Notes: generated by a model not told the origin, from the letters alone. Positions 1,470-37,734 are shown, counted from the first letter of the stretch. The stretch: 45,180 nucleotides of DNA from a virus (IMGVR_UViG_3300045988_132224:1-45180); one strand, 5' to 3'. Numbers and translations: made by a program.

Positions 1470-2285
1470 TTAGTGCCCCGCTTCCTGGTCTTCCCGTTCA
1501 ATCATGGGAAGAACTCCATGCTTCTTGAGGAGCTGATACAGGAAGAGGCGTCCTTTCTGTGTCCATTCGGTCTGCATCTTACAGTCCGGACGGCCGTCGC
1601 TGTGCTTGAAGTCGAAGGGCTTGCTGTGGGTATAGCCCCGCGCCTGGTATTTCGCGTACAGGAACCATTGTGACCCCATCCGGTAAATGACCCGGAGTTC
1701 ATGGAGCTTCTGGTTCATCGCCTTGGCGCTCATCCCGTAATCTTTCGCAATGGCCGTGGTCGGCACGGTCCCTTTGCTGGAAAGGATGCGGTCGGTATAA
1801 TCGGCTTTCGGCTTCAGTTCACCGATGAGCTGTTTGGCACTGGCCGCTTCCAGTTCGGCACTCTTCCGGGCTTCCCGTTCGAGTTTCAGCTCCGTGGCCA
1901 GCCGGATCAGCGTGTCCGGATTCAACAGCACTTCTTCCACCTTTTCCGGTGTCAGGTAAGCCCCATGCCGGCGGATGGCCGGAAGAACTTCGTCGGCCAG
2001 GACTGCCTGGAACTTCTGAGCTACTTCGTTACTGGCCTTGAATCCCAGCCGGTACACCATGTTTTCCGGCAGGAAATCATTTTCGCCCACTTGTGGTCGA
2101 AAGCCGAAAGACTGTAAATATTCATTGACCCTTGCCCATCTAACAGATTCATACTTAACGCCGTTTTTTGTTTCCACCTTGGTAAAACCAAATCCTCTTG
2201 CTACATCTCCGGCATTCAAATAGGCCGTCCCCGTTTTCGGGTCCAGGTATCCGCGGACGTTGTTGATATTCAAAACTTCGTTCAT
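1470..2285 (-). CDS. Phage antirepressor (ORF6N/Bro-N-like N-terminus, KilA-C-like C-terminus)
   Basis: N-terminus ...AYLNAGDVARGFGF...VRWARVNEYL... and C-terminus ...TTAIAKDYGMSAKAMNQKLHEL...GYTHSK are typical of the Ant/KilAC family. SD AAAGGAGGAG. Confidence 0.75.
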   Translation of the reverse strand: MNEVLNINNVRGYLDPKTGTAYLNAGDVARGFGFTKVETKNGVKYESVRWARVNEYLQSFGFRPQVGENDFLPENMVYRLGFKASNEVAQKFQAVLADEVLPAIRRHGAYLTPEKVEEVLLNPDTLIRLATELKLEREARKSAELEAASAKQLIGELKPKADYTDRILSSKGTVPTTAIAKDYGMSAKAMNQKLHELRVIYRMGSQWFLYAKYQARGYTHSKPFDFKHSDGRPDCKMQTEWTQKGRLFLYQLLKKHGVLPMIEREDQEAGH

Positions 2286-2339
2286 ACGTGTCTCCTCCTT
2301 TACTCCATAAATTGTTCATGTCGCAAGCATTTTCCTATT

Positions 2340-2348
2340 TGCTATAAT
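2340..2348 (+). promoter_or_regulatory. Extended -10 promoter element TGcTATAAT for the second plus-strand moron
   Basis: tgctataat read at 2340-2348. It overlaps the first ATG of ORF 2347, so the true start is further downstream. Confidence 0.5.
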
Positions 2349-2964
2349 GTTTATACATAATGAAAGGATGGTGCTTATTTTGATTATCGATTCTATGACT
2401 ATAGCTTGTTATGGTGCTCTTGTTTCTACCATAGTGGCGGTTATCCAACTGTACACTTTTTTCAAATCAAGAGGATTCTTGTCACTTGATTTAGATCCTA
2501 TGCATGGTTCTTATTACATAAACAGTGACAATTGCCTACAAATTAATTACCAAGGAAAATACTTTTTAATTCTTTCTGTGAAATTAAGTAATAAGTCTTC
2601 TGTTCCTACAACAATTGATGGAATATATCTTTTAAATTCTAATAACAAAAAATTTTATTCATTCAAGGAAATAAAATTAGATCTACCGTTTTATCATGGA
2701 CATACTGTGCCTTTTAATGACAAGTTATTAACTTTTCCCTTAAGGCTGAATCAATATGATTCCATAAAAGGCACTCTAGTTTTCCCGTTGGATAATATCT
2801 ATCAATTAAAAAATGTCAGTCTCAACCAAGAACAAGGCATTACGGTTTATATCGAATCACCTAGAGGTATTTATCCCCATGAAATAACCGTACTTCCTTA
2901 CGTAACTTACATGGAGCATCATCTAAAACGGAATCTCCTTCAGCAATCAAAGAAATTGAAGTAA
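2347..2964 (+). CDS. Hypothetical N-terminally membrane-anchored protein (AT-rich moron); true start probably 2368-2380
   Basis: ORF track. TM helix ACYGALVSTIVAVIQLYTFF is followed by a beta-rich domain. The SD-like GAAAGGATGGTG precedes the TTG at 2380. Confidence 0.6.
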   Translation: MFIHNERMVLILIIDSMTIACYGALVSTIVAVIQLYTFFKSRGFLSLDLDPMHGSYYINSDNCLQINYQGKYFLILSVKLSNKSSVPTTIDGIYLLNSNNKKFYSFKEIKLDLPFYHGHTVPFNDKLLTFPLRLNQYDSIKGTLVFPLDNIYQLKNVSLNQEQGITVYIESPRGIYPHEITVLPYVTYMEHHLKRNLLQQSKKLK

Positions 2965-3061
2965 TTCCATTCAGTTCATCGAGTTCACTCATGTCCATGT
3001 CCTTTACTAGTTGAATAATTTTTTCTCTTCTACATTGTCGGAATTTTTCTTTCTTATTCAT
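2861..3061 (-). CDS. Hypothetical protein downstream of antirepressor 2
   Basis: ORF track; SD GGAGG precedes the ATG at 3061. Its 3' end overlaps the convergent moron by 104 nt. Confidence 0.45.
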   Translation of the reverse strand: MNKKEKFRQCRREKIIQLVKDMDMSELDELNGITSISLIAEGDSVLDDAPCKLRKEVRLFHGDKYL

Positions 3062-3074
3062 GCTACGCGCCTCC

Positions 3075-3878
3075 TTAGTGTCCCGCTTCTTGGTCGTCTT
3101 TTAGTAGTTCAAGAATGTGATGATTCCAGAGAAGTTGATACCCGCTGTGCCCGTTGCCGCGGGTATACGGAACATGCTCGCAGTACGGCTTTCCAATCGC
3201 GGTAGGCACCCAGTCAGTACCCACTTTTTCTTGCAAGCCTTTGCTATTCAGCATGGCGTTGACCCGTTGCGGGCTGGGATTCCCTTTACTGTTCAAGATG
3301 CCCAGTTCTTTGGCAATCATCGTCGGCGTCAGTGTCGACGGGTTAGTTTCTGCCGGGATGAACCGTTTCAGCGGGGTCATATCGACGCCGTAAGCCTTCC
3401 CGACCATCTGCATGGCTGCGGTCATGGCCATTGGCTTCTTGACGCCGAAGGTATCGGCAATCATAGCTGCCGTGTCGGCCGTATCCTTTACCGCTGTCTT
3501 AATCATCCGTGTCCGGTAATGCGGGTTCGGGGTGATCTTGGGGACGGCATATTTGCCGGTTTTTCGTATCGTCGGCAAGACGTCCGACGTGACCCAACGT
3601 TTGAATTGTTTAGCTGTCGGAAGCTTACTGGAGAGAACTAAACTATATAAGCCTGATTCATTGATGAGTGTGGCCTTGCTTTTGTAGTTGGAACCACTCC
3701 CCTGAATCAGGGTACTGGTTTTATCTTCGGGATCTATGTGATTCGCTACAGCATTTTCCGGTTTTGCATAGCCTAGTGCCATTGCCACATCTTTAGCGAC
3801 AAACCATGGATCACCGTCTATCGTTACTGTTCTTACCTGTCCAAATTCTGGACTTTTAAAAATCTGTAATTCGTTCAT
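3075..3878 (-). CDS. Bro-N family antirepressor
   Basis: Classic Bro-N motif FGQVRTVTIDGDPWFVAKDVAMALGY...INESGLYSLVLSSKLPTAKQFKRWVTSDVLP. The C-terminal tail DDQEAGH is shared with antirepressor 1. Confidence 0.8.
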   Translation of the reverse strand: MNELQIFKSPEFGQVRTVTIDGDPWFVAKDVAMALGYAKPENAVANHIDPEDKTSTLIQGSGSNYKSKATLINESGLYSLVLSSKLPTAKQFKRWVTSDVLPTIRKTGKYAVPKITPNPHYRTRMIKTAVKDTADTAAMIADTFGVKKPMAMTAAMQMVGKAYGVDMTPLKRFIPAETNPSTLTPTMIAKELGILNSKGNPSPQRVNAMLNSKGLQEKVGTDWVPTAIGKPYCEHVPYTRGNGHSGYQLLWNHHILELLKDDQEAGH

Positions 3879-3912
3879 TTCTTTTCACTCCTTCGCTAAC
3901 GCGCCCACATCA

Positions 3913-4128
3913 TTAATTACTTGTATTTCCGTCATTTCGTTTCAAAAAATTAAGGTCAATTCCTAAAATATCGGCCAATCTCGATAATACTTTCAAGCTC
4001 GGAGTGTACCGGCCTCTTTCCACATCTGCATAATATGCACGCGAAACACCGACCATCCCAGATAATTCCAATTGAGTTAATCCAGCCTTTTCACGAGCGG
4101 ACTTGAGCACATCTCCAATTTTATTCAC
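3913..4128 (-). CDS. Cro-like XRE-family HTH regulator
   Basis: GLTQLELSGMVGVSRAYYADVERGRYTPS HTH_3 motif. GTG start with SD GGAGGTGG. Transcribed divergently from the repressor. Confidence 0.8.
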   Translation of the reverse strand: MNKIGDVLKSAREKAGLTQLELSGMVGVSRAYYADVERGRYTPSLKVLSRLADILGIDLNFLKRNDGNTSN

Positions 4129-4285
4129 TATACCACCTCCCTTCTTTAATTACTTGTATTTCCGTCTTGCAAAGTAAGTGTACAGTATTTCCGTCATTTT
4201 GTCAATAGTATTTCCGTCATATTTATATTATAATGGTCTCAAAAGACGGAAAAACCGCACAAGGCAAAAATAAGGAGGGATTCTT
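4129..4285. promoter_or_regulatory. Divergent immunity (cro/cI) control region with repeated operator-like motif GTATTTCCGTC
   Basis: Direct copies lie at 4156-4166, 4185-4195 and 4208-4218, with an inverted half-site GACGGAAA at 4244-4251. TATAAT lies at 4229-4234 (+). Confidence 0.6.
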
Positions 4286-4903
4286 ATGAAAAGCATAGGT
4301 GAACGAATTAAAGAAGCGAGAAAATCGGCTGGATTGACACAATTAGAACTGGCTAAAAAAACAGAGCTTTCCCGCTCTTATATTGGCGATATAGAAAAAG
4401 ATAGGTATAACCCCAGTGTATCTACCCTGCAATTAATAGCTACAGCAACAAATACGCCATTGGAAGATTTACTTCCATCAACTAAGACGGTTTCCCCCGC
4501 AGGCCGGGGCGTCCGCATCCCAGTTCTTGGCCGCGTCGTGGCGGGCATCCCTATCGAAGCCGTGGAGGAAATCCTGGACTACGAAGAAATCACCCCGGAG
4601 CTTGCCGCGACTGGCGAATTTTTTGCATTAAAAATCCGCGGTCACTCGATGGAGCCGCGGATGATGGAAGGCGACGTCGTTATTGTCCGCCGGCAGGATG
4701 ACGTAGAGTCAGGAGATATCGCCATCGTTTTGGTCAATGGCAACGAGGCCACCGTGAAACGCGTGAAAAAGCAGGAAGACGGCATCACCCTGATTGCAAC
4801 GAACACGTCTGTATACGAACCGCATTACTACTCCAACAAGGAAATTGAAGAACTCCCGGTCCGTATCCTCGGCAGAGTCGTTGAGCTTCGGGGGAAGATG
4901 TAA
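4286..4903 (+). CDS. CI/LexA-like repressor (XRE HTH plus S24 autopeptidase domain)
   Basis: HTH GLTQLELAKKTELSRSYIGDIEKDRYNPS. Putative cleavage site VVAG. Ser in GHSMEP and Lys in ATVKRV form the S24 dyad. Confidence 0.9.
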   Translation: MKSIGERIKEARKSAGLTQLELAKKTELSRSYIGDIEKDRYNPSVSTLQLIATATNTPLEDLLPSTKTVSPAGRGVRIPVLGRVVAGIPIEAVEEILDYEEITPELAATGEFFALKIRGHSMEPRMMEGDVVIVRRQDDVESGDIAIVLVNGNEATVKRVKKQEDGITLIATNTSVYEPHYYSNKEIEELPVRILGRVVELRGKM

Positions 4904-4925
4904 TATAGGAAAGGATAATTTTATC

Positions 4926-5399
4926 ATGATATTAACTCAACATGAAGCAGACACATTGCGAGAAATAGAAAAATGTTTAGCCAGTCCAACTAGTGTCCGA
5001 CTTCCTCAACGACGAGAAACTAAATTGTATCCACTATGGTATCAATATAATGGCCGGAACAAGGATGATATGACCCTTTCGGCCTTCCGGGGCAATAAAA
5101 ACCCCAAAAAAGTCTCTTTCCGCTTATTATATTCTCAATGTATAATATTGGTAAGGATCGATACCCAGGATCCTACGCCACACACAAATCCAGATGGAAC
5201 AAGAATAGCACCGTTGGAGCCGCATATTCACATTTATAAAGAAGGCTATGGCGATAAATTTGCTTACCCCTTGCCAGAAGAATTTAGTCATACTAATGAT
5301 ATTATTGATTTGTTTATGGATTTCTTAGCATACTCACATGTTATCAACAGGGACCAAGTGCATCTTGTAGAACCGGAGGTGCTTTTTGATGGATACTAA
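4926..5399 (+). CDS. Hypothetical protein with His-rich motif (HTNPDG...PHIHIY), co-transcribed with the repressor
   Basis: This is the distal part of ORF 4794..5399. SD GGAAAGGA precedes the ATG at 4926. It starts 22 nt after the repressor stop with no terminator between them. Confidence 0.65.
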   Translation: MILTQHEADTLREIEKCLASPTSVRLPQRRETKLYPLWYQYNGRNKDDMTLSAFRGNKNPKKVSFRLLYSQCIILVRIDTQDPTPHTNPDGTRIAPLEPHIHIYKEGYGDKFAYPLPEEFSHTNDIIDLFMDFLAYSHVINRDQVHLVEPEVLFDGY

Positions 5400-6165
5400 T
5401 TTCGATTGGATTGCTGAATATTACCAATGGATAAAAAAGAATTTATCTGCCAGACGGTTAAAAAATGGATGGACAGAAATCGGCACACCGTTTATGGACC
5501 GTCATAATGATGGGCTGGTAATCTACGCTAAGAGGGATGGGGACAGCATCACTTTATCTGATGATGGATATATTATTAACGACTTGATTGCTGACGGCGT
5601 TTCCTTACGCGGTTCTAAGCGAGCCGCTTTTTTAAACGGTCTCCTTTTTTCTTATGGCGTCGAAAACCAAGACAATGAAATGGTGATGCGTACTACCCCA
5701 AAAAACTATGCTGTAAGTATGCATATGTTTATTCAAGCTATGCTTGCCGTAAATGATATGTTTATGTTAAACAATGCTACAATAAAAACCATTTTCTTGG
5801 ATGATGTCGCTAATTATTTTGACCAACAAGGCCTTATCTATACTCCAAACTTTTTGGCTAAAGGCAGTACAGGCCTGGAATTTAATTTCAACTTCCAGAT
5901 TGCTGGACGAACGTCAGAAATACTTATCAATTCATTTAATTCTATCAACCGAGGGAATCTTGCGGCGTTCCTATTTGATTGGCAGGATATACGTGATGAA
6001 CGACAGAAAAGGTCCCGTAAGAAAGTGAAAGGCTTAGCAATCATTAACGACGAAAAGGAAGTTGACAGAAAATATTTGGATGCATTGATCGCTAAAGGTA
6101 CAGACTATATTCTTTTTTCCGAACGATTGAAGCCTGAAAATCTCCAAAAATTAACGGCGGCCTAA
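5389..6165 (+). CDS. Hypothetical protein; from memory resembles DUF1828 (N) plus DUF1829 (C) family proteins
   Basis: SD GGAGGTG lies 7 nt before the ATG at 5389. It overlaps the upstream stop by 11 nt, suggesting translational coupling. Motif GWTEIGTPFMDRHNDGLVIYAKRDGDSITLSDDGY. Confidence 0.6.
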   Translation: MDTNFDWIAEYYQWIKKNLSARRLKNGWTEIGTPFMDRHNDGLVIYAKRDGDSITLSDDGYIINDLIADGVSLRGSKRAAFLNGLLFSYGVENQDNEMVMRTTPKNYAVSMHMFIQAMLAVNDMFMLNNATIKTIFLDDVANYFDQQGLIYTPNFLAKGSTGLEFNFNFQIAGRTSEILINSFNSINRGNLAAFLFDWQDIRDERQKRSRKKVKGLAIINDEKEVDRKYLDALIAKGTDYILFSERLKPENLQKLTAA

Positions 6166-6218
6166 CTCAATGCAAAACGAACGAATTTCTCAAATTTTAA
6201 CCTGATTCTGCAAGAAGT

Positions 6219-6294
6219 CTCCCGCCTCTATAGGTGGGAGTACGTTCACTTGTTTCAGAAATAAAAAAAGATCCTGAACATATTATTCAGGATC
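6219..6294. terminator. Two hairpins ending the repressor-cargo operon
   Basis: ctcccgcc/ggtgggag stem at 6219-6240. Perfect 9-bp stem gatcctgaa/ttcaggatc at 6270-6294, flanked by an A-run upstream. Confidence 0.45.
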
Positions 6295-6508
6295 TCAAAA
6301 ATAATATTGCAAAAAAATAAGCCACCCCCAGGGGCAAAGGAATTCTAAGCGTAATCGCCTACTCCCATTCGGGAACCCAGCCTTATCCTTCACAAGTTGA
6401 CTTTATAGTCATTATATCAAAAAAACGGGAAAATGCAACTATTTATTTTATGACACCTGTTCTTGACCAAACAAGATAAAAATAGAAAAAGTACCGGCAC
6501 CGTGCTGC

Positions 6509-6739
6509 GACGTCGTCATCGTCAAAAAGCAGCCAACCGTAGACTCTGGTGACATTGCCATCGTCCTCGTCAACGGCAACGACGCCACGGTCAAAGAGAT
6601 AAAAGAAAGCCCGGCCGGCATCACTCTCATCGGCCATAACGTCGCCGTATATACGCCCCACTTCTACTCCAACCATGACATAGAGTCTCTTCCCATCCAG
6701 ATAATCGGCAAAGTGGTGGAGATGCGGCGGAAGTTTTAG
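6509..6739 (+). pseudogene. 5'-truncated remnant of a second S24-type repressor (C-terminal 76 codons only, no start codon)
   Basis: It translates to DVVIVKKQPTVDSGDIAIVLVNGNDATVKEIKESPAGITLIGHNVAVYTPHFYSNHDIESLPIQIIGKVVEMRRKF*. This is collinear with the CI C-terminus DVVIVRRQDDVESGDIAIVLVNGNEATVKRV...VVELRGKM*. An in-frame TGA lies at 6464, and there is no ATG/GTG/TTG after it. Confidence 0.8.
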
Positions 6740-6749
6740 AAAGGAAGTA

Positions 6750-7520
6750 ATGAAAGATATGAGCCATCCTTTACCTAAATCCCATATACTTGTAAAACGC
6801 TATAGAAAATTTGCAAATTTTCTCAAAATGACGAGTAACAAAAATTTCCAGCGATTTATGTTGTGGATTCAACACTATATACAGCTGAAGTTTAATGAAA
6901 AAGAATTCAAATCAACCTTTTTACCAAAATATGAAGAAGGACAAATTATTTTTGTTGATTTCGGCTGCGGTATATCTCATGAATTTAGCTATCCTCATTA
7001 TGCAGTTGTTTTAAACTTGCATGATCGCAAGAAAAGCAACTTGCTTACTGTAGTACCTATGACATCAAAAAAGCCCAAACACAAAATATTAAAGCCATGG
7101 GAACATGAATTACAGTGTACAGTTCCTGATTTATTAGCTATGAAAGCCATGTCTGAATTTGACTTACAAAAACCTGAGTACAAGGATTTGCGAAATGATG
7201 TTATCCAGTTATTTTTACAAAATACCACTAAAGAGGAATTTGACAAAAGGCATCATGAGCTTATCGAAAGAGGCGTACAGGCTATATACAATAACAACTA
7301 TGACATTATGAGTTTTAGAGAAAAAATGAAGCAAGGGAGTATCGTTGAAACAAATCAAATCCGCACAATCAGTAAGTCCAGGATAATATTCCCAACGAAA
7401 AAATTACATCCACTTTATGATATTAAAGTTGATAAGCAAGACTTGTCTATCATTAAGTGGAAAATAATGAAAAATATTGTCATAGATATTATTGACAAAC
7501 CTGATGAAGAGCGTATATAA
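6750..7520 (+). CDS. Oversized MazF/PemK-fold toxin-like protein (N-terminal extension and ~95-aa insertion)
   Basis: GQIIFVDFGCGISHEFSYPHYAVVLN...LLTVVPMTSKK and GSIVETNQIRTISKSRI match the two conserved MazF/PemK/EndoA blocks (compare [25 protein letters not shown] and DSVILLEQIRTIDKQRL). Confidence 0.65.
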   Translation: MKDMSHPLPKSHILVKRYRKFANFLKMTSNKNFQRFMLWIQHYIQLKFNEKEFKSTFLPKYEEGQIIFVDFGCGISHEFSYPHYAVVLNLHDRKKSNLLTVVPMTSKKPKHKILKPWEHELQCTVPDLLAMKAMSEFDLQKPEYKDLRNDVIQLFLQNTTKEEFDKRHHELIERGVQAIYNNNYDIMSFREKMKQGSIVETNQIRTISKSRIIFPTKKLHPLYDIKVDKQDLSIIKWKIMKNIVIDIIDKPDEERI

Positions 7521-7590
7521 TGGAACTACAAATTGGGCTGTGAATCCCAAAAAATATTTTCCATTATTGTCTCCATTCGGAGGCAAAAAG

Positions 7591-7619
7591 AAAGGCGCTC
7601 TATGCAGAGCGCCTTTTTT
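7591..7619 (+). terminator. Rho-independent terminator after the MazF-like gene
   Basis: aaaggcgctc-tatgca-gagcgccttt stem-loop followed by a T-run. Confidence 0.8.
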
Positions 7620-7644
7620 GATTGCGTATTTGTCTATAAAAAAA

Positions 7645-7706
7645 TCCCGGTACCGTGCTGGAACACGATACCGGGATATGCCGCAGGTGCTGGAACACCT
7701 ACGGCG
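7645..7706. other. Two tandem hairpins with identical CTGGAA loops
   Basis: tcccggtaccgtg-CTGGAA-cacgataccggga at 7645-7676 (13-bp stem, 1 mismatch). ccgcaggtg-CTGGAA-cacctacgg at 7681-7704. The first is followed by a T-run on the minus strand, so it can act as a minus-strand terminator. Confidence 0.55.
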
Positions 7707-7794
7707 CTGTAAATCTACACACACGACTACGGGGGCTGATTTACGCTATCAGTATATCACATCAGCCTCCCTTTACGCAAAGGAGGTTATTTTT

Positions 7795-8874
7795 ATGACC
7801 GATTTAACCTATCACTTCTCTTTCAGAGAAAAGGATCGCGGCTGGCAGGTCATCTTATCGTACAAAGACCAGGCGGGACGCTGGAAGCAGAAGTCACGCC
7901 AGGGTCTGGCCACCAAAAAGGCTGCCAAAGCCGCCGGCGAAAAGCTCCTGGTCGACGTACTCGATGCAATGAAGAGCCAGCCAATTGCGCCGGAGCTCGT
8001 CGACATCTCCCTGGCAGAATTTGCAGAATACGTTTTCCGCAGCCGCAACCTGACGTATAACTCCGTCCTGGCCTATCGCTACGCGCTGAAGAATTACGGC
8101 CCGAAGCTTCTGGCCATGCCGGTCCGTAAAATCACCTATCTAGACATCCAGCAGGCGATGAGCGCCTGGCAATGTGCTGATGCCAGCTACCAGCTCTATG
8201 TAACCTGCCTCAAGATGGTCCTGTCCTACGCTGTCGAGCCCTACCATCTCCGGCAGGATAACCCAGCCATCCACTTGAAGCCCAGGAAGCTGAACCGCCG
8301 GCACAAGATCCGGGCGCTGACGCAGACCGAATTTGACCAGCTTATGGGAAGCATGGAGACCCGTCCGATGAAATACTATGCCATGTGTGCCATTGCTGGA
8401 TATACCGGAATGCGAGTAGGCGAAATTATGGCCCTCACTTGGGATGACGTAGATCTAAAAGAGCGACAGATTAGTGTTACCAAGCAATACGGCCGTATTG
8501 CCCATAAGAAGCGCGGGATCATGAACATCAAAAACAAGGCCGCCGGGCATCGTGTCATCCCCATTCCCGTCAAACTGCAGCAAATCCTATTGGCCTATCG
8601 CCGTTCCGAGCCGCGGCAAATAAATGGGCAGCTATTCCCGCATAGCCAGTTCTATAAATCACTAGATGGATACATAAAGAAGATTGTCCCTGATGCATCT
8701 ATCCATAGTTTACGTCACACCTATGCAACGATGCTGCTGGCCAATGGCACCGACATCAAGACCGTGGCAGCGCTCCTCGGCGACACGGTTACCACGGTTT
8801 TAAATGTCTACGTGGATTATACAGACGACATGAGACGGAAAGCCGCGCAGTCAATTGAAAAAATTTTTGCGTAG
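7795..8874 (+). CDS. int: Tyrosine integrase (lysogeny integrase)
   Basis: SD AAAGGAGG precedes the ATG at 7795, and the upstream part of ORF 7492 is discounted. Motifs AGYTGMRVGEI, HSLRHTYATML and LNVYVDY match the R...HxxR...Y pattern. It sits next to the repressor module and putative attP. Confidence 0.9.
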   Translation: MTDLTYHFSFREKDRGWQVILSYKDQAGRWKQKSRQGLATKKAAKAAGEKLLVDVLDAMKSQPIAPELVDISLAEFAEYVFRSRNLTYNSVLAYRYALKNYGPKLLAMPVRKITYLDIQQAMSAWQCADASYQLYVTCLKMVLSYAVEPYHLRQDNPAIHLKPRKLNRRHKIRALTQTEFDQLMGSMETRPMKYYAMCAIAGYTGMRVGEIMALTWDDVDLKERQISVTKQYGRIAHKKRGIMNIKNKAAGHRVIPIPVKLQQILLAYRRSEPRQINGQLFPHSQFYKSLDGYIKKIVPDASIHSLRHTYATMLLANGTDIKTVAALLGDTVTTVLNVYVDYTDDMRRKAAQSIEKIFA

Positions 8875-9153: not shown

Positions 9154-9357
9154 TTATTTCCCTGGCTCTGGCCCGTAAAGTCGCTCCATTCCTGCACGGG
9201 TTACAAGCCAAATCCGCCCGGCTTTTCTGGCCTCTGTAGGCAAAAATTTTGGCTTTGCTTTAGCATATCCGCTACAAGCCTGCTGTACTGTGATTGGGGC
9301 TTTCCCCCATTTTTCAGCAGCTTCTGCTGCGGTCATGACTTCTTCTAAACAATTCAT
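9154..9357 (-). CDS. Small HTH DNA-binding protein (Xis-like or autoregulator-like)
   Basis: The ATG at 9357 overlaps the TGA of the upstream peptide (TGATG). Motif TAAEAAEKWGKAPITVQQAC...GRIWLVTRAGMERL. Confidence 0.6.
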   Translation of the reverse strand: MNCLEEVMTAAEAAEKWGKAPITVQQACSGYAKAKPKFLPTEARKAGRIWLVTRAGMERLYGPEPGK

Positions 9358-10758: not shown

Positions 10759-10971
10759 CTACATACGCGACAATACGGATGTCAGCACAGACGAAAAAAT
10801 GCCCACAACTGTGACACTTGTCCCGAGTGTCCAGCAAATGTCATGTTTGAGATCATCGATTCGATGATGGGCCGATTTGCCGGCTTCGACGGCTTGGACG
10901 ACCTCACGATTGAGATTCGTCAGCTGCCGTTCTATCCTATCCAAGCGAGTCATTAATTCAGTATCATTCAT
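10759..10971 (-). CDS. XhlA-like lysis-associated membrane protein
   Basis: N-terminal coiled coil (LDRIERQLTNLNREV) plus a C-terminal TM, positioned before the holin as in PBSX xhlA-xhlB-xlyA. Confidence 0.6.
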   Translation of the reverse strand: MNDTELMTRLDRIERQLTNLNREVVQAVEAGKSAHHRIDDLKHDICWTLGTSVTVVGIFSSVLTSVLSRM

Positions 10972-11059
10972 ATAATCCTCCTTTATTCAAATAACATTCG
11001 TCTATAATAGGCGGAGGTCTTGCTGTCTTCGTCATGGCATATGGTATCCTTTCAGAGAG

Positions 11060-12094
11060 GTGATACTATTGAAACTACCAAATGGATTCGGCACGGTCTA
11101 CAAAATGCAAGGGAATCGTCGCCGTCCTTACGTGGCAAAGAAGACAATACAAGGGAAACAAAAGCCTATCGGCTATTTTGAAACATTCGAGGAGGCCATG
11201 GCCTGTCTCGTCGAGTATAATCGCGACCCTGCCTTGCTGAGTCCGAGCAAGACAACTTTTGCCGAGGTCTACGCGCTTTGGAAGGCCCAGCACTTCCCGC
11301 GCCTCCGAAGTGATTCTGCGCGCATCAGCTACAAAAATTCGTATCGTCATTGCTCCCGCCTCCATCAAATGATTTTCGTGGACATCCGGCTCGGCCACCT
11401 CGACCATGTCATTGACGATGTGCGTCATGCAGGCTGCGGATACCCAACGCAGAAGAAAGTCCGCTCTCTGCTCGAGCAGCTTTACAAGTACGCAATACGA
11501 TATGACCTGGTCGTCAAAGATTATGCCCGATATCTCGATATTGACCGACCTCGTAAACTGCACAAGAAAAAGCCGTTTACCGTCCGTCAGCGCAACCGCT
11601 TGTGGCGTGGCGTTGATGATGTGCCCGAAGCACGTCATGTCCTCATGCTCATATACTCGGGATGCCGTGTCGGTGAGTACCGTCATATCCGGAAGACTGA
11701 CGTCAAGCTGCGCCGTCGCGTCATCGTGATCCGGCACAGCAAGACCGATGCCGGTGCGGGCAGGCTTATCCCCATCCCTCGCAAGCTCATGCCATGGTAC
11801 GAGGAGGCTATGCAGACTCCCGGACTCTACATCTGCGGACGCGCAGATGGCAGCCGTCACAGCTACGACTCTTTCCGCCGCGCTATCTTTGACCCTGTCA
11901 TGCACCACTTCGGCATGTCGCATACGCCGCATGAGTGCCGCCACACGCTTGCCAGTATGCTTGACTCTGCCGATGTCAACCGCACCGTCATCAAGCTCAT
12001 CCTCGGACACAGCCTCGAAGGTGTGACCGAACGTGTCTACACGCATAAGAGCATCCGCGAATTGCTGAGAGCCATCGACAAGGTCTGTACTTGA
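11060..12094 (+). CDS. Second tyrosine recombinase (Arm-type N-terminal DNA-binding domain); candidate tail-fibre invertase
   Basis: LPNGFGTVYKMQGNRRRPYVAKK arm-binding-like N-terminus. Catalytic-pattern motifs SGCRVGEY, HECRHTLAS, LGHS and ERVYTH. The likely start is the TTG at 11069. Confidence 0.85.
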   Translation: MILLKLPNGFGTVYKMQGNRRRPYVAKKTIQGKQKPIGYFETFEEAMACLVEYNRDPALLSPSKTTFAEVYALWKAQHFPRLRSDSARISYKNSYRHCSRLHQMIFVDIRLGHLDHVIDDVRHAGCGYPTQKKVRSLLEQLYKYAIRYDLVVKDYARYLDIDRPRKLHKKKPFTVRQRNRLWRGVDDVPEARHVLMLIYSGCRVGEYRHIRKTDVKLRRRVIVIRHSKTDAGAGRLIPIPRKLMPWYEEAMQTPGLYICGRADGSRHSYDSFRRAIFDPVMHHFGMSHTPHECRHTLASMLDSADVNRTVIKLILGHSLEGVTERVYTHKSIRELLRAIDKVCT

Positions 12095-12190
12095 CGTATG
12101 CTTAACCGATATATGCACTCGCGTGATATTCCTTGCCATGACTGCGCCGTCCTGTGCTTAACCTGTCATTACGATTTCGCACGATTTACA

Positions 12191-12231
12191 AGAGCCGCTA
12201 ACCCCTTACGCCACAAGGGCTTGGCGGCTCT
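12191..12231. terminator. Long hairpin between the convergent recombinase and zinc-ribbon genes
   Basis: agagccgc...gcggctct outer stem with an inner ccctt/aaggg stem. Confidence 0.5.
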
Positions 12232-12266
12232 TTGCGTCAGATGCAACGCACGATTCCCGCACGATT

Positions 12267-12449
12267 TTATTTGTCAGTGTCCGACTGACCAGAATCCCCG
12301 TCAGCCGTTGCCTTGCCTTCCTCGGCAGCTTTTTCGGTGTCATGCGTCTGCGTCCGGATATAATCCGCACATTTTTCATTTCGGCACCAGCCTTCAGCAT
12401 CCAATTTATGCCCGCAGAATGGGCAACGTTTTGCTCTTGCCATAATCAT
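12267..12449 (-). CDS. Small zinc-ribbon protein
   Basis: CPFCGHKLDAEGWCRNEKC motif. ATGA overlap with the upstream gene. Confidence 0.55.
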   Translation of the reverse strand: MIMARAKRCPFCGHKLDAEGWCRNEKCADYIRTQTHDTEKAAEEGKATADGDSGQSDTDK

Positions 12450-12859
12450 TCAGCTCCTTTCAATGCAGCTTCATACTCGGCCTTAACTTCTGCATACTCT
12501 GATTTCAGCTCGGCAATCAAAGACTCATCGCCAGCCAGCGTAGCAGTCGCAAGTGCATCTTTGAGCTCACTAATCTGCGACTCATAATCCGCCGCAATCG
12601 ACGCCTGCTTCTGCTCCGTCGTCACAATAATTGCCGGTGCATCAGTCGGCTTGCCATCCGCGCCGCGAATATAGCCCGTACCATTAGCGCCCGTGCCGCG
12701 ATTACCAACATAGTACGCATAATCATCATCCGATGTTTCGATGTATCCGTCATCGAGATACTTCTGCTTTTCTTCTGCTGTCGAAAAATGAATGCCGTCT
12801 GCAACGGTCGCAATGCGATTACCGTCAAAATCAAATTTGCATAAATACATAAAAATCAT
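12446..12859 (-). CDS. Tail-fibre-associated hypothetical protein (XkdW-position gene); start possibly 12850
   Basis: ORF track. Lies between the tail fibre and lysis genes, as XkdW/XkdX do in PBSX-like elements. Confidence 0.55.
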   Translation of the reverse strand: MIFMYLCKFDFDGNRIATVADGIHFSTAEEKQKYLDDGYIETSDDDYAYYVGNRGTGANGTGYIRGADGKPTDAPAIIVTTEQKQASIAADYESQISELKDALATATLAGDESLIAELKSEYAEVKAEYEAALKGAE

Positions 12860-12877
12860 CCTTTCTTAATTTAATTT

Positions 12878-12889
12878 ACAGTGGGGAAG
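12878..12889 (+). repeat. Crossover site S1: ACAGTGGGGAAG
   Basis: Read directly; one of four copies of this motif. Confidence 0.8.
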
Positions 12890-13079
12890 TAACCGCTATG
12901 GATGGGTGGCTTTTCCGGTGGCTTTCGCTCAGTTTCGTAAGCTTGTGACCAACCACCAAGGCGTGTCGTGGATGCAGTCACAGGCCCGAGAATCGGTCAC
13001 GCTTGCTGGGTTTACGTTAGACGTAGGGGATAATAATAAACAAGACTGCGATGCCCAATGGATCGCCATTGGGCAATAG
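12879..13079 (+). other. Silent tail-fibre tip cassette A (66 codons, no start codon)
   Basis: QWGSNRYGWVAFPVAFAQFRKLVTNHQGVSWMQSQARESVTLAGFTLDVGDNNKQDCDAQWIAIGQ*. Its stop directly abuts S2. Confidence 0.7.
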
Positions 13080-13091
13080 ACAGTGGGGAAA
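13080..13091 (+). repeat. Crossover site S2: ACAGTGGGGAAA
   Basis: Read directly. Confidence 0.8.
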
Positions 13092-13323
13092 TGCTAGTAT
13101 CAATGACGGTAGGACATACGGCGATTTCTTACTACCGATTTCGGTATCTGATGTTCTGGCCGTATTTGCCCTCGATTATGATAACAGCTCAACAAATGGG
13201 ACAACGATTGGCGATTACTATACAGTGACTTATAAGCCATCATTTTCGAATGGCTCGAGATTACGATTTGTAACTAAAGGGGTATCGATAGGCGGATTTT
13301 GCGTTTTTGTTATTTGCAAATAG
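13081..13323 (+). other. Silent tail-fibre tip cassette B (80 codons)
   Basis: QWGNASINDGRTYGDFLLPISVSDVLAVFALDYDNSSTNGTTIGDYYTVTYKPSFSNGSRLRFVTKGVSIGGFCVFVICK*. This is the distal part of ORF 13051..13323. Confidence 0.7.
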
Positions 13324-13489
13324 CGATATAAAATATCACATACTCATTACTTGTACCTAACCATTTATTGGTTTTCAAAGAATAGGTCTCTGGTCGCGTG
13401 GATAAGCCTTCGTGCATCCCGACGATAGCTATTAAATTCGCTGCTATCGGCAGGATAAGATTTTTATTTTCAGTGCTTCTTCCCCACTG
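13310..13489 (-). other. Silent tail-fibre tip cassette C (59 codons)
   Basis: QWGRSTENKNLILPIAANLIAIVGMHEGLSTRPETYSLKTNKWLGTSNEYVIFYIAICK*. It starts at S3 directly after the expressed gene's stop. Confidence 0.7.
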
Positions 13490-13490
13490 T
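13479..13490 (-). repeat. Crossover site S3: ACAGTGGGGAAG (minus strand)
   Basis: cttccccactgt on the plus strand, immediately 3' of the tail-fibre stop codon. Confidence 0.8.
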
Positions 13491-14297
13491 TTACTTGGTG
13501 ATGGCTAAATAAAAGCACGTCCCAGACGAAATGCTAGCATCGTTGACAATTTGGATATACCCATCATTACTGCCAGTTGCTGATATAAAATGGTTCGAGT
13601 CCTTATTATCCCAGATTGATATGACATATCGTAATATACTAGCTGATACTGGTAGATTAATGTGATTCTGGCTATTGACCACTCCCCACTGTATAATTAG
13701 GCCGCCGCAATTCGGGCCAAAGCAAATGTAGCCATTTTGGTCCATTAGCCCAGTGATGCCCAGTCGATGATTTGTAAACTTTTTCCCGTCCCAGGTTACG
13801 TCTGCCCCCGTTGCAAGATTTGCAATCATCGTACCCAGTCTTGCAAGGGTTGCCGCCGGCGCTTCTTTCCAATCACTAGCCCCGGTAGCAGCCTTAATTC
13901 TGTTGGCCAGTTCAGACACTTGATTTCTAAGTGTATCAGTATCTGAGGTTGGAACTAGTGTATCTTTTATAGTTGACGTCATAGAACTGTGCGCATCGGT
14001 AGCTTCATTATGGGATTTTACTACTTCTTCGCCATTAGCCAAAATAGCTTTACCAAGGTTTGCCGTAATTGTTTGTACATCATTATCATTGCAGTCATAT
14101 CCTTTTCCCACGATGAAATCAGCGATGGCTTTACACATGGAGCTGACCTGGAAGTAAAGCTTATTATGCAACCGGGACAACGCAATCCCGGGGATAACGC
14201 CGCTTTGCCGCTGGGTAGCGTTTGCATACTCGCTGTCATTGAATGTATGTTCTTTCGTATGATCTTCGTTAAAAATCTTGAAATTGGTAGATGCCAT
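13491..14297 (-). CDS. Tail fibre protein (currently expressed tip variant D)
   Basis: ORF track. It is the last structural gene after baseplate J and the DUF2612-like gene. The C-terminal 66 aa begin QWG at S4. Confidence 0.75.
   Translation of the reverse strand: MASTNFKIFNEDHTKEHTFNDSEYANATQRQSGVIPGIALSRLHNKLYFQVSSMCKAIADFIVGKGYDCNDNDVQTITANLGKAILANGEEVVKSHNEATDAHSSMTSTIKDTLVPTSDTDTLRNQVSELANRIKAATGASDWKEAPAATLARLGTMIANLATGADVTWDGKKFTNHRLGITGLMDQNGYICFGPNCGGLIIQWGVVNSQNHINLPVSASILRYVISIWDNKDSNHFISATGSNDGYIQIVNDASISSGTCFYLAITK
13681..13692 (-). repeat. Crossover site S4: ACAGTGGGGAGT (minus strand), inside the tail-fibre gene
   Basis: actccccactgt on the plus strand. It encodes I-Q-W-G, 66 codons before the stop. 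Confidence 0.8.
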
Positions 14298-14312
14298 ATA
14301 TATTCCCTCCTA

Positions 14313-14963
14313 TTATCCCCATCGGCCCGAATCATATCCGGACAATCTGGACGTATCAGTATCATAAGCAAATGACATTTCGTCGCCTTGTTCAATCCAA
14401 TTCCCTTTATCGTATCCAGCAATGACGTCGTTTCCGGTGTCGTATCCGAAAACATGGTCATTTGCAAAGTATGCGTTTACGAGGACTGACTGCGGCTTGG
14501 GGATAATGTCTCCATTACGAATCATTAGTTGAGTAATTTTATCAAGCCCATTGGATATAATCACCACATCAATGGTCATATCTTGATTATCTTCAATTAA
14601 GATTGGAGTACCAAATAATACCTTCCATGTTGTTGCCAGATCTTGAATGCCGCCTTTCCACATATTTTTTGATATTTTAGCCATTAGTAATGAGCGGAAA
14701 TTCGCATTATCTAATATAGGATTTAAATTAAATTCAGGTTGATATCCTAACATTCGTGATGCACCGATAATCTCACCGAGCACATCTTCCTGCACACCAT
14801 CAGCATAATCCAGGTCAAAGTCATCATCGAGTTCAACTCCTAATGAAAAAATCTCGTTGCTATGTGAAAGGAGTGCTCGTACCATGCTCATGTATTTGGG
14901 TTTATCTCGATGTTCGCCGGTGATGAGCTTCAAGTAGTTATCGACAAATTCCATACCTATCAC
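14313..14963 (-). CDS. Baseplate/tail-fibre base protein (DUF2612-like by memory)
   Basis: ORF track; position after baseplate J. Overlapping ATGA-type junction. Confidence 0.55.
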   Translation of the reverse strand: MIGMEFVDNYLKLITGEHRDKPKYMSMVRALLSHSNEIFSLGVELDDDFDLDYADGVQEDVLGEIIGASRMLGYQPEFNLNPILDNANFRSLLMAKISKNMWKGGIQDLATTWKVLFGTPILIEDNQDMTIDVVIISNGLDKITQLMIRNGDIIPKPQSVLVNAYFANDHVFGYDTGNDVIAGYDKGNWIEQGDEMSFAYDTDTSRLSGYDSGRWG

Positions 14964-37305: not shown

Positions 37306-37734
37306 CTAATCGTCGTCCAGCGGTTCAATCTGGACGTAGATGCCGGATAGAGATTGAGGAACATAGAACTTTTGGATACATTCCGACGCGACTTGAGCAT
37401 CATCCCGCCAGAAGCCCAGTGACGTCAGGACGTCCTTGAGCATCTTGACCAGGTTATCCGTATCGGGCTTGGTTGCCTTCCACGTTCCTTCCGGGTGCAG
37501 CTTCGTTGGCGGGTACATCCATTTCGTCGTCAATGCCACGGGCCCCATGATCGGCTGGGCTGGGCGGAACTTCGTAAAACTGGCCATGAACAGGGCCCGC
37601 GTTTCTTTGACGGCCGGCGGCTCATACGTATGTGGCTTGCCATCACGCCCGACGACGAGCTTTTTCATCTGATGCGTCGCCGACGGAATCCGCTGCATGG
37701 GTACGAAGAAATGAATCATGTTTTTATCTGTCAT
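37306..37734 (-). CDS. rusA: RusA-family Holliday junction resolvase
   Basis: KPDTDNLVKMLKDVLTSLGFWRDDAQV matches the RusA signature. Confidence 0.8.
   Translation of the reverse strand: MTDKNMIHFFVPMQRIPSATHQMKKLVVGRDGKPHTYEPPAVKETRALFMASFTKFRPAQPIMGPVALTTKWMYPPTKLHPEGTWKATKPDTDNLVKMLKDVLTSLGFWRDDAQVASECIQKFYVPQSLSGIYVQIEPLDDD

Follow-up and report, generated by a model that had tools for sequence, protein, structure and literature searches.

A Tyrosine Recombinase of the Phage Integrase Family as the Probable Invertase of a Four-Cassette Tail-Fiber Shufflon

Described here is a viral DNA of 45,180 nucleotides, IMGVR_UViG_3300045988_132224:1-45180 (the entire stretch is hereafter referred to as the window), and, in particular, the gene located at positions 11060 to 12094 on its plus strand. 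This gene encodes a tyrosine recombinase that is distinct from the canonical integrase of the phage, and we assign a probability of roughly 0.85 to its product being the site-specific invertase of a tail-fiber shufflon with four cassettes. A previous reading of the DNA, based on the sequence only, had put the gene forward as a dedicated invertase. That proposal is supported by comparative evidence, namely the co-conservation of enzyme and site, natural recombination products, and the absence of a competing enzyme among the 37 other ORFs scanned. The window is a Selenomonas-type prophage, and this second recombinase very probably flips short cassettes to provide four alternative fiber tips.

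Organization of the cassette array

The 10-mer ACAGTGGGGA occurs exactly four times in the 45 kb, twice on each strand, and all four copies lie within 12878-13692. The two sites on a given strand are spaced at 202 bp, and the first, S1, begins 784 bp past the recombinase stop codon, precisely the distance reported earlier. The features of the array are as follows.

12878..12887 (+): crossover site S1 (ACAGTGGGGA), an exact match; the homology to loci L024 and L026 stops here
12888..13079 (+): cassette C, a silent tip, QWGSNRYG...AIGQ(stop), open in the site frame with its stop abutting S2
13080..13089 (+): crossover site S2, an exact match
13090..13323 (+): cassette D, QWGNASIN...VICK(stop), open in the site frame
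13310..13480 (-): cassette B, QWGRSTEN...AICK(stop), converging on D with a 14-nt overlap
13481..13490 (-): crossover site S3, immediately after the fiber stop codon
13491..13682 (-): cassette A, the currently expressed fiber C-terminus, QWGVVNSQ...AITK(stop), an open reading frame (ORF)
13683..13692 (-): crossover site S4, inside the fiber gene; the homology to L026 resumes here
13693..14297 (-): constant N-terminal part of the fiber, downstream of a DUF2612 baseplate gene (14313-14963)

Each site is read in the frame xxA CAG TGG GGA, which corresponds to the sequence QWG, and each opens an ORF of 59-80 codons whose stop codon either immediately precedes the following site or lies where B and D converge. 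The tail fiber itself is encoded at 13491-14297 on the minus strand, with S4 falling inside the gene and S3 coming right after the stop codon. The four tips display amino acid sequence identities of 21-34% and have in common the QWG start, a proline, a glycine, and an ...I(A/C)xK end. The array at 12878-13692 is thus that of a shufflon, and the fiber has four alternative C-termini. The DUF2612 family has been reported in a published survey to be statistically enriched beside the targets of programmed inversions (PMC9881135). Note that the overlap between B on the minus strand and D on the plus strand, 13310-13323, is a near-palindrome, TTATTTGCAAATAG, and that both cassettes end in ...ICK(stop).

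A logo was calculated from 69 distinct sites taken from the window and 20 loci, 21 sources in all. It lacks dyad symmetry, and its flanks are nearly devoid of information except for a T at -3 and an A at +10. When the recombinase and 37 other ORFs of the window were scanned against Pfam, no match to the resolvase-type family PF00239 was observed, nor was a further site-specific recombinase found among the 37. The RusA protein encoded at 37306-37734 was considered as a competing enzyme and rejected because it is a Holliday-junction resolvase rather than a site-specific recombinase.

Structure of the recombinase

The ORF at 11060-12094 encodes a complete tyrosine recombinase, which is 344 residues long when counted from the longest-ORF start, GTG 11060. 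All of the motifs listed for it in the sequence-only reading, namely LPNGFGTVYK, RRRPY, SGCRVGEY, HECRHT, LGHS, and RVYTH, are indeed present. Residues 192-331 match PF00589 (Phage_integrase) with an E-value of 1.4e-14 and a score of 54.7 bits versus a cut-off of 27.1, and the protein matches PHROG 1 (integrase) with an E-value of 2.8e-41. In an alignment with 25 homologs having identities of 46-89%, the catalytic residues Arg 203, Lys 228, His 291, Arg 294, His 317, and Tyr 327 are invariant, as is an N-terminal block consisting of Leu 6, Pro 7, Asn 8, Gly 9, Gly 11, Arg 20, Arg 21, Pro 23, and Lys 27. The homologs all begin with MKLPNGFG, and thus the true start of the gene is probably TTG 11069 rather than GTG 11060, giving a protein of 341 residues. 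The gene is therefore listed as given here.

11069..12094 (+): tyrosine recombinase, putative shufflon invertase, on the basis of profile matches, catalytic residues, predicted fold, and homolog starts

The AlphaFold2 model of the recombinase has a mean pLDDT of 86.8. Its N-terminal domain is predicted to contain three β-strands (residues 12-15, 24-30, and 33-40) followed by an α-helix (residues 43-55), with pLDDT values for this block of 80-86. A search with Foldseek gave as the best matches the Tn1549 Int and full-length lambda Int; the E-values for Tn1549 Int, lambda Int, and Xer range from 1e-10 to 1e-8. The structural alignment with full-length lambda Int (1z1b) covers 363 columns. No Pfam arm model matched the recombinase at E<=0.01, and hence the assignment of an arm domain rests on the predicted fold. 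The three strands and the helix modeled between residues 12 and 55 favor the arm-type N-terminus that had been suggested from the motifs. Likewise, no invertase-family model of NCBIfam matched the protein at E<=0.01.

The gene is situated between the lysis and the fiber genes and runs antisense to the late operon. It had been described as the only plus-strand gene in this block, and this description holds: all of the other plus-strand ORFs of at least 110 codons between ~10 and 45 kb overlap longer ORFs on the minus strand. The canonical integrase at 7795-8874 (hereafter Int1) is also as first reported, with matches to both Arm-DNA-bind_4 and PF00589 and with a CI/LexA-like repressor nearby (4286-4903). 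The recombinase and Int1 are 25% identical, over the catalytic domain only.

Conservation of enzyme and sites

A protein search yielded 824 homolog clusters (at 90% identity) with E<1e-10, of which the shufflon-linked proteins constitute some fraction. The genomic context of the homologs is in keeping with an invertase: nearly all of those examined that are 46-94% identical to the window enzyme adjoin a fiber-cassette array and not att or dif sites, the opposite of the outcome that the sequence-only reading had named as a refutation. Where there is enough downstream DNA, the adjacent arrays carry the same or a co-varying short site of the form xxxxxGGGGAA. The exceptions are L027, with one site, L035, with a truncated recombinase and no sites, and L024, with sites on one strand (L numbers denote loci throughout). 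In loci from the genome and viral collections whose recombinase is intact and 79% or more identical, exact sites start 660-990 bp past the stop codon and mostly number two to nine, distributed over both strands. The chance expectation for a given 10-mer is ~0.01 per 6 kb.

Two of the exceptions deserve description in their own right. In L024, whose recombinase is 94% identical to that of the window, the site inside the fiber gene (~9181-9190, minus strand) has decayed to ACAGTGGATA, and five intact sites with silent cassettes are found at 7818-8746 on the plus strand; the fiber appears locked. In L035 (1645-2160) the recombinase comprises residues 1-172 only and the 6 kb downstream contain no ACAGTGGGGA, such that this may be a decayed module.

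In L003-L006, where the recombinase is 79% identical, the order of the module is lysis genes (-), recombinase (+), genes for proteins of 69 and 135 residues (-), a gene-poor stretch, and the fiber (-). The tails of these phages are of the lambda GpJ type. The gene-poor stretch contains four to nine exact copies of the window 10-mer, often placed back to back as TTCCCCACTGTACAGTGGGGAA. Such pairs form the perfect palindrome TCCCCACTGTACAGTGGGGA with cassettes leading outward on both sides, as at 12156-12175, 12580-12599, and 13262-13281 in L003 and at 7436-7455 and 7897-7916 in L004; the window has none.

The module occurs in at least four phage backbones, namely siphoviruses with GpJ tails, phages with P2-like baseplates, the E217-like myovirus represented by the window, and phages with giant proteins, and the integrases of these phages differ. 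The named hosts are Selenomonas bovis and Anaerovibrio, with Phascolarctobacterium and Acidaminococcus for the more distant members. The giant proteins found in some module phages (L001, 1-2375; L104-L107, 1-1018) are single polypeptides of 4,000-4,950 residues with lytic transglycosylase or glucosaminidase and ResIII helicase domains and, in L104-L107, MuF_C. A DNA search with 10900-14400 against the GenBank phage collection gave no near-identical match. A transfer RNA scan of 23 loci found none, so that integrase and invertase contexts are not separable by it.

The sequence of the site changes together with the recombinase, as follows.

Window clade: at least 76% identity; site ACAGTGGGGAA; array from 660-990 bp after the stop codon
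L040 and L033: 53% identity; site CTGTCGGGGAA; array from the recombinase stop codon
L104: 53% identity; site CCGTTGGGGAA; array from the recombinase stop codon
L032: 53% identity; site ACTGTCGATGA
L108 (Phascolarctobacterium, P2-like baseplate): 46% identity; site GCAGTGGGGAA in four copies (2+2); Gp53-like_C cassettes on both strands

Within the 53% clade, the recombinase stop codon and the first site overlap. The cassettes in this clade belong to another fiber family (Gp10_C, ...TVGEL..H.H...AYLW.RTA(stop)) and the site is read in another frame, which indicates that the GGGGAA half is preserved as DNA, irrespective of what it encodes. The other half, of five nucleotides, drifts across lineages and is uniform inside one phage. 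If the asymmetric sfx sites of plasmid R64 are taken as a guide, GGGGAA is likely to be the recombinase-binding arm and the variable half the region of strand exchange.

These data bear on the question of whether the inversions could instead be catalyzed in trans, either by Int1 or by a host enzyme, with the gene under study being a passenger that fulfills some other role. Global trans-acting invertases do exist, an example being Mpi of Bacteroides fragilis as it is cited in PMC6109161, and the recombinase gene of the window is not directly adjacent to the cassettes. The site and the recombinase travel together, however, across backbones that encode such unrelated integrases as a tyrosine enzyme of 388 residues (L003) and a large serine enzyme of 515 residues (L111), which makes a trans-acting integrase unlikely. 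Catalysis in trans is also at odds with the co-variation of the site with the recombinase clade and with the overlap of site and stop codon in the 53% clade. Taken together, this explanation is considered to be highly improbable.

Natural products of recombination

A comparison of L004 with L006 provides an example of the expected rearrangements. The flanks of the two loci are 99.9% identical, but a 900-bp block of two cassettes is inverted and one cassette has been lost, with the end-points all at sites. Between the window and L024 or L026, a homology of 85-90% extends up to S1 and then again from S4 onward, and the cassettes in between are unrelated. The otherwise unrelated phage of L113 carries, at 7392-7898, the cassettes C (96%) and D (93%) of window positions 12890-13335, with C flipped relative to D. 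Different phages seem to trade fiber-tip cassettes by way of the site that they have in common.

Additional signs come from the manner in which assemblies end. Breaks exactly at the sites occur in the draft assemblies of two isolates and in several contigs from metagenomes. Contigs ending exactly at a site include L001 (55 kb), L002, L009 (2.6 kb, from the isolate Selenomonas bovis DSM 23594), and L106; the end of L110 is a site-like sequence, and L113 stops ~2 nt before reaching a site. The scaffold L010, from the isolate Anaerovibrio sp. RM50, contains an N-gap and exact 95-nt duplications that end at sites (duplication and gap coordinates 3566-3660, 7665-7842, and 8159-8253; the scaffold order there is probably artificial). 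In RM50 one cassette is joined both to the constant part of the fiber and to the S1-side flank, and the S1-side flank is joined to two different cassettes. These doubled junctions are the signature of isoforms co-existing in one culture.

Several observations weigh against the gene product being the invertase, or at least a simple one. L024 and L027 retain an intact recombinase together with a degenerate or a single site. Products of deletion between direct repeats exist, so that the system is not confined strictly to inversion. The viral contigs searched contained no alternative isoform of the cassette set of the window itself; the single contig returned belongs to a different phage and displays the relative flip of C and D only. 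Two genes and 784 bp intervene between the recombinase gene and S1 in the window. Finally, simple invertases do not usually have an arm-binding domain, and its predicted presence here could mean that the enzyme carries out an additional or a different reaction.

Placement within the integrase family

In a neighbor-joining tree, calculated without bootstrap, the shufflon-linked proteins (identities of 45-94%) form one clade. This clade nests inside the family of integrases characterized by the motif MKLPNGYGSV..RRxPY, with Int1 of the window and the Rin recombinases, which are discussed below, as outgroups. The sequence-only reading had called for a comparison with Rci, Xer, and phage integrases by profile and phylogeny; the clade lies in a family of the last of these, and the cut-offs for Xer were missed widely. 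The relatives with identities of 33-40% are ordinary integrases found at integrase positions without cassette arrays. A k-mer search beside these relatives revealed no shufflon-like repeats, and this lack of repeats helped to set the boundary of the invertase clade. As examples, the homolog in the Butyrivibrio phage Arawn (35% identical) lies where the lysis module meets the lysogeny module, that of Eubacterium sp. OM08-24 lies between a helix-turn-helix (HTH) repressor and a host-like surface protein, and cassettes are absent downstream of the gene in two contigs with 40%-identical homologs. The best protein matches in the GenBank phage collection are at most 40% identical, and no description of the shufflon-linked recombinase family was found in the literature searched. 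From these comparisons, the family appears to derive from ordinary phage integrases.

In Arawn (L043) a gene at 10905-12050, beside the tail genes, is annotated as a putative reverse transcriptase. It could belong to a diversity-generating retroelement, which would be another route to fiber diversification.

Given this ancestry, the gene might be thought to encode a second enzyme of the integrase or excisionase type, left over from another mobile element or serving the phage as an alternative integration system. Indeed, the clade nests among genuine integrases with the same N-terminal arm motif, and both PHROG 1 and the names in the databases read "integrase." Yet the position in the late region between lysis and fiber genes is maintained in homologs of 46-94% identity, no att-like context accompanies that position, and a separate integrase occupies the usual place in those phages. 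The gene is, moreover, intact and conserved rather than decaying. We deem a role in integration even less probable than catalysis in trans.

An Xer-like enzyme that would resolve multimers of the phage genome in a plasmid-like or replicating state is the least credible of the alternatives: the matches to XerA, XerC, and XerD models and structures are weak (36-47 bits against curated cut-offs of 220-335), multiple asymmetric sites in a coding array take the place of a single dif-like palindromic site, and the protein has a predicted arm domain, which Xer proteins are not known to have.

Sequence elements surrounding the gene

The following features flank the recombinase gene.

11042..11062 (+): promoter-like and ribosome-binding region, a putative function for a motif shared by the clade
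12101..12109 (CTTAACCGA) and 12157..12166 (CTTAACCTGT) (+): direct repeats, candidate arm-type sites from their recurrence in the clade
12190..12232 (no strand assigned): strong hairpin, likely a bidirectional terminator, given its folding energy and the convergent recombinase and 60-residue protein genes
12267..12859 (-): two small genes for proteins of 60 (zinc-ribbon-like) and 137 residues, conserved with the module

The sequence TGGTATCCT at 11042-11050 resembles an extended -10 element, and GAGAGGTG follows at 11055-11062. TTG 11069 lies six bases past GAGAGGTG, and GAGAGG precedes the start. A T(G/A)nTATCCT ... GAGG motif is positioned ~20 nt ahead of the start codon in most of the aligned members of the clade.

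On the other side of the gene, members of the clade with identities of at least 76% repeat the sequence CTTAAC(C/G)TGT approximately 0, 11, and 64-71 nt past the recombinase stop codon. All four of the 53%-identity loci have an identical TTCTTAACGTGTTCTTT, which lies there across the cassette array, on its far side; in L040 it is found just upstream of the fiber gene start. These repeats are candidates for arm-type sites. In L115 (~7480-7520) tandem copies of GTTAGTTACCTGTTAGTTATTTGTTAGTTACC (GTTAGTTACCTGTTAGTTA...) are observed downstream of an ordinary integrase of 40% identity; they are arm-site-like and resemble the CTTAACCTGT of the invertase clade. A second set of direct repeats, CGCACGATT(T/C) at 12178-12187, 12248-12257, and 12258-12267, flanks the hairpin. 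It is retained only in L012 and L023-L026, and the CGCACGATT repeats were dropped as arm sites because they are conserved in the closest relatives only.

The hairpin at 12190-12232 had been taken for the gene's own terminator. It is real and strong, with folding energies of -31.3 kcal/mol on the plus strand (z=-5.9) and -33.3 on the minus strand (z=-4.1), but its T run is short, it is absent from the list produced by the terminator scan, and it lies between convergent genes; it is best regarded, therefore, as bidirectional. Counterparts of the two small genes, encoding proteins of 54-69 and 135 residues, hold the same place in L001-L008.

Farther upstream, the region 1470-7520 contains two Bro-N/ANT antirepressor-like genes, a CI-like repressor (HTH_3 and Peptidase_S24), DUF6978, and DUF1828/DUF1829. 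A protein of 256 residues with a PemK/MazF-like toxin domain is encoded just upstream of the canonical integrase.

Proposed mechanism

With the recombinase as the invertase, the following scheme can be envisioned. The enzyme would bind the asymmetric site (T)nnACAGTGGGGAA and recombine sites in inverted orientation, that is, S1 or S2 with S3 or S4. Given the common reading frame of the sites, each inversion involving S4 would fuse the constant part of the fiber in frame to A, C, or D. Tip B would be reached via two successive inversions. The gene would be transcribed from its own promoter-like element, with low expression probable in the lysogen, and a lysogenic population would as a result release phages with different receptor specificities. 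Owing to its antisense orientation relative to the late operon, the gene may be suppressed by late transcription, and inversion would then occur mainly in lysogens. Inversion by gin of phage Mu likewise takes place mainly in lysogens.

A more elaborate version of this scheme takes the arm domain into account, and we offer it as a speculation that is more doubtful than not. The enzyme would be an invertase of the lambda Int type that has kept its arm domain, for which the CTTAAC(C/G)TGT repeats would serve as the arm sites. An intasome-like complex would select the pairs of sites and favor inversion over deletion. With the short site being common to diverse phages, the same enzyme would also trade cassettes, and thus fiber tips, between co-resident phages.

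Comparison with other fiber-switching systems

The closest functional parallel among phages is the Rin shufflon described for Bifidobacterium prophages such as Bb423phi1 (Mavrich et al. 2018, PMC6109161) and also, as a Rin-type system, for prophages of Eggerthella lenta (PMC8778435). In both Rin phages and the window, a phage tyrosine recombinase is encoded beside the gene for a receptor-binding protein with a constant N-terminus and silent C-terminal cassettes, and a short asymmetric site of ~11 bp precedes every cassette, with one copy in the gene and one past its stop codon. The 11-bp Rin site, rix, is TTCCCTAACCC, and its other strand, GGGTTAGGGAA, shares a terminal GGGAA with the window site. 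A comparison with 60 rix-bearing loci by tblastn demonstrated that the Rin proteins, which are 296 residues in length, align only from residue 73 of the window enzyme onward (residues 73-335), with ~23% identity and an E-value near 1e-8. Int1 scores better against the Rin loci than does the putative invertase, which is no closer to Rin than to Int1, and in the tree Rin is an outgroup; the window enzyme is not a Rin ortholog. Rin has been described as XerD-like and lacking an arm domain (PMC6109161), whereas the conserved N-terminal domain of the window family is, according to its predicted fold, of the arm type. Other differences include the hosts (Negativicutes here, Actinobacteria for Rin), the fiber families, and the two genes that separate enzyme and array in the window subclade, unlike the arrangement in Rin.

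The analogy with Rci and its shufflon, as drawn in the sequence-only reading, holds at the functional level only. Rci and the sfx sites of R64 constitute a multiple-inversion system in which a tyrosine recombinase swaps the C-terminus of a surface adhesin. R64 and the window both have multiple asymmetric sites, in both orientations, that separate alternative C-terminal segments of one gene. In the sfx sites, one arm and the core are conserved, according to the work of Gyohda (2002, 2006) as cited in PMC11850598. The window site has a different sequence and a shorter conserved part, and its target is a phage tail fiber rather than pilV of the conjugative pilus of the IncI plasmid R64. The predicted N-terminal arm-type domain and the deletion products from direct sites further set the window system apart from Rci.

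Gin of phage Mu, Cin of P1, and Min of p15B also provide temperate phages with alternative fiber C-termini by inversion, and Min, like the window, has multiple sites and cassettes. These enzymes are, however, serine recombinases that require an enhancer and Fis. By sequence and fold, the closest proteins are lambda Int, the Int proteins of Tn916 and Tn1549, and the MKLPNGYGSV...RRxPY family (Arawn, for example), which share with the window enzyme a three-domain architecture and an invariant N-terminal motif. Those integrases reside at the lysogeny junction and integrate or excise an element, whereas members of the window clade reside in the late region beside fiber cassettes, with another integrase present.

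Biological implications

The shuffling of fibers by a tyrosine recombinase was already known from other phages; this large enzyme family, in contrast, is undescribed in the literature searched. The system works like those of Rin and Rci, with an enzyme that is an independent recruit carrying a predicted arm domain. It thus represents, beside Rin, a second and independent recruitment of a tyrosine recombinase to phage fiber shuffling. The series of enzymes and sites, with ACAGT-, GCAGT-, CTGTC-, and CCGTT-GGGGAA, offers a natural set for studying the transition from integrase to invertase, and it could also supply orthogonal tools for multiplex inversion like those now being built from Rci. Recombination at the sites explains why prophage assemblies break at one spot. 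If the assignment is correct, many proteins labeled as integrases in metagenomes become tail-fiber invertases, and the phages of gut and rumen Negativicutes (Selenomonas, Anaerovibrio, Phascolarctobacterium, and Acidaminococcus) would possess a widespread switch of host range.

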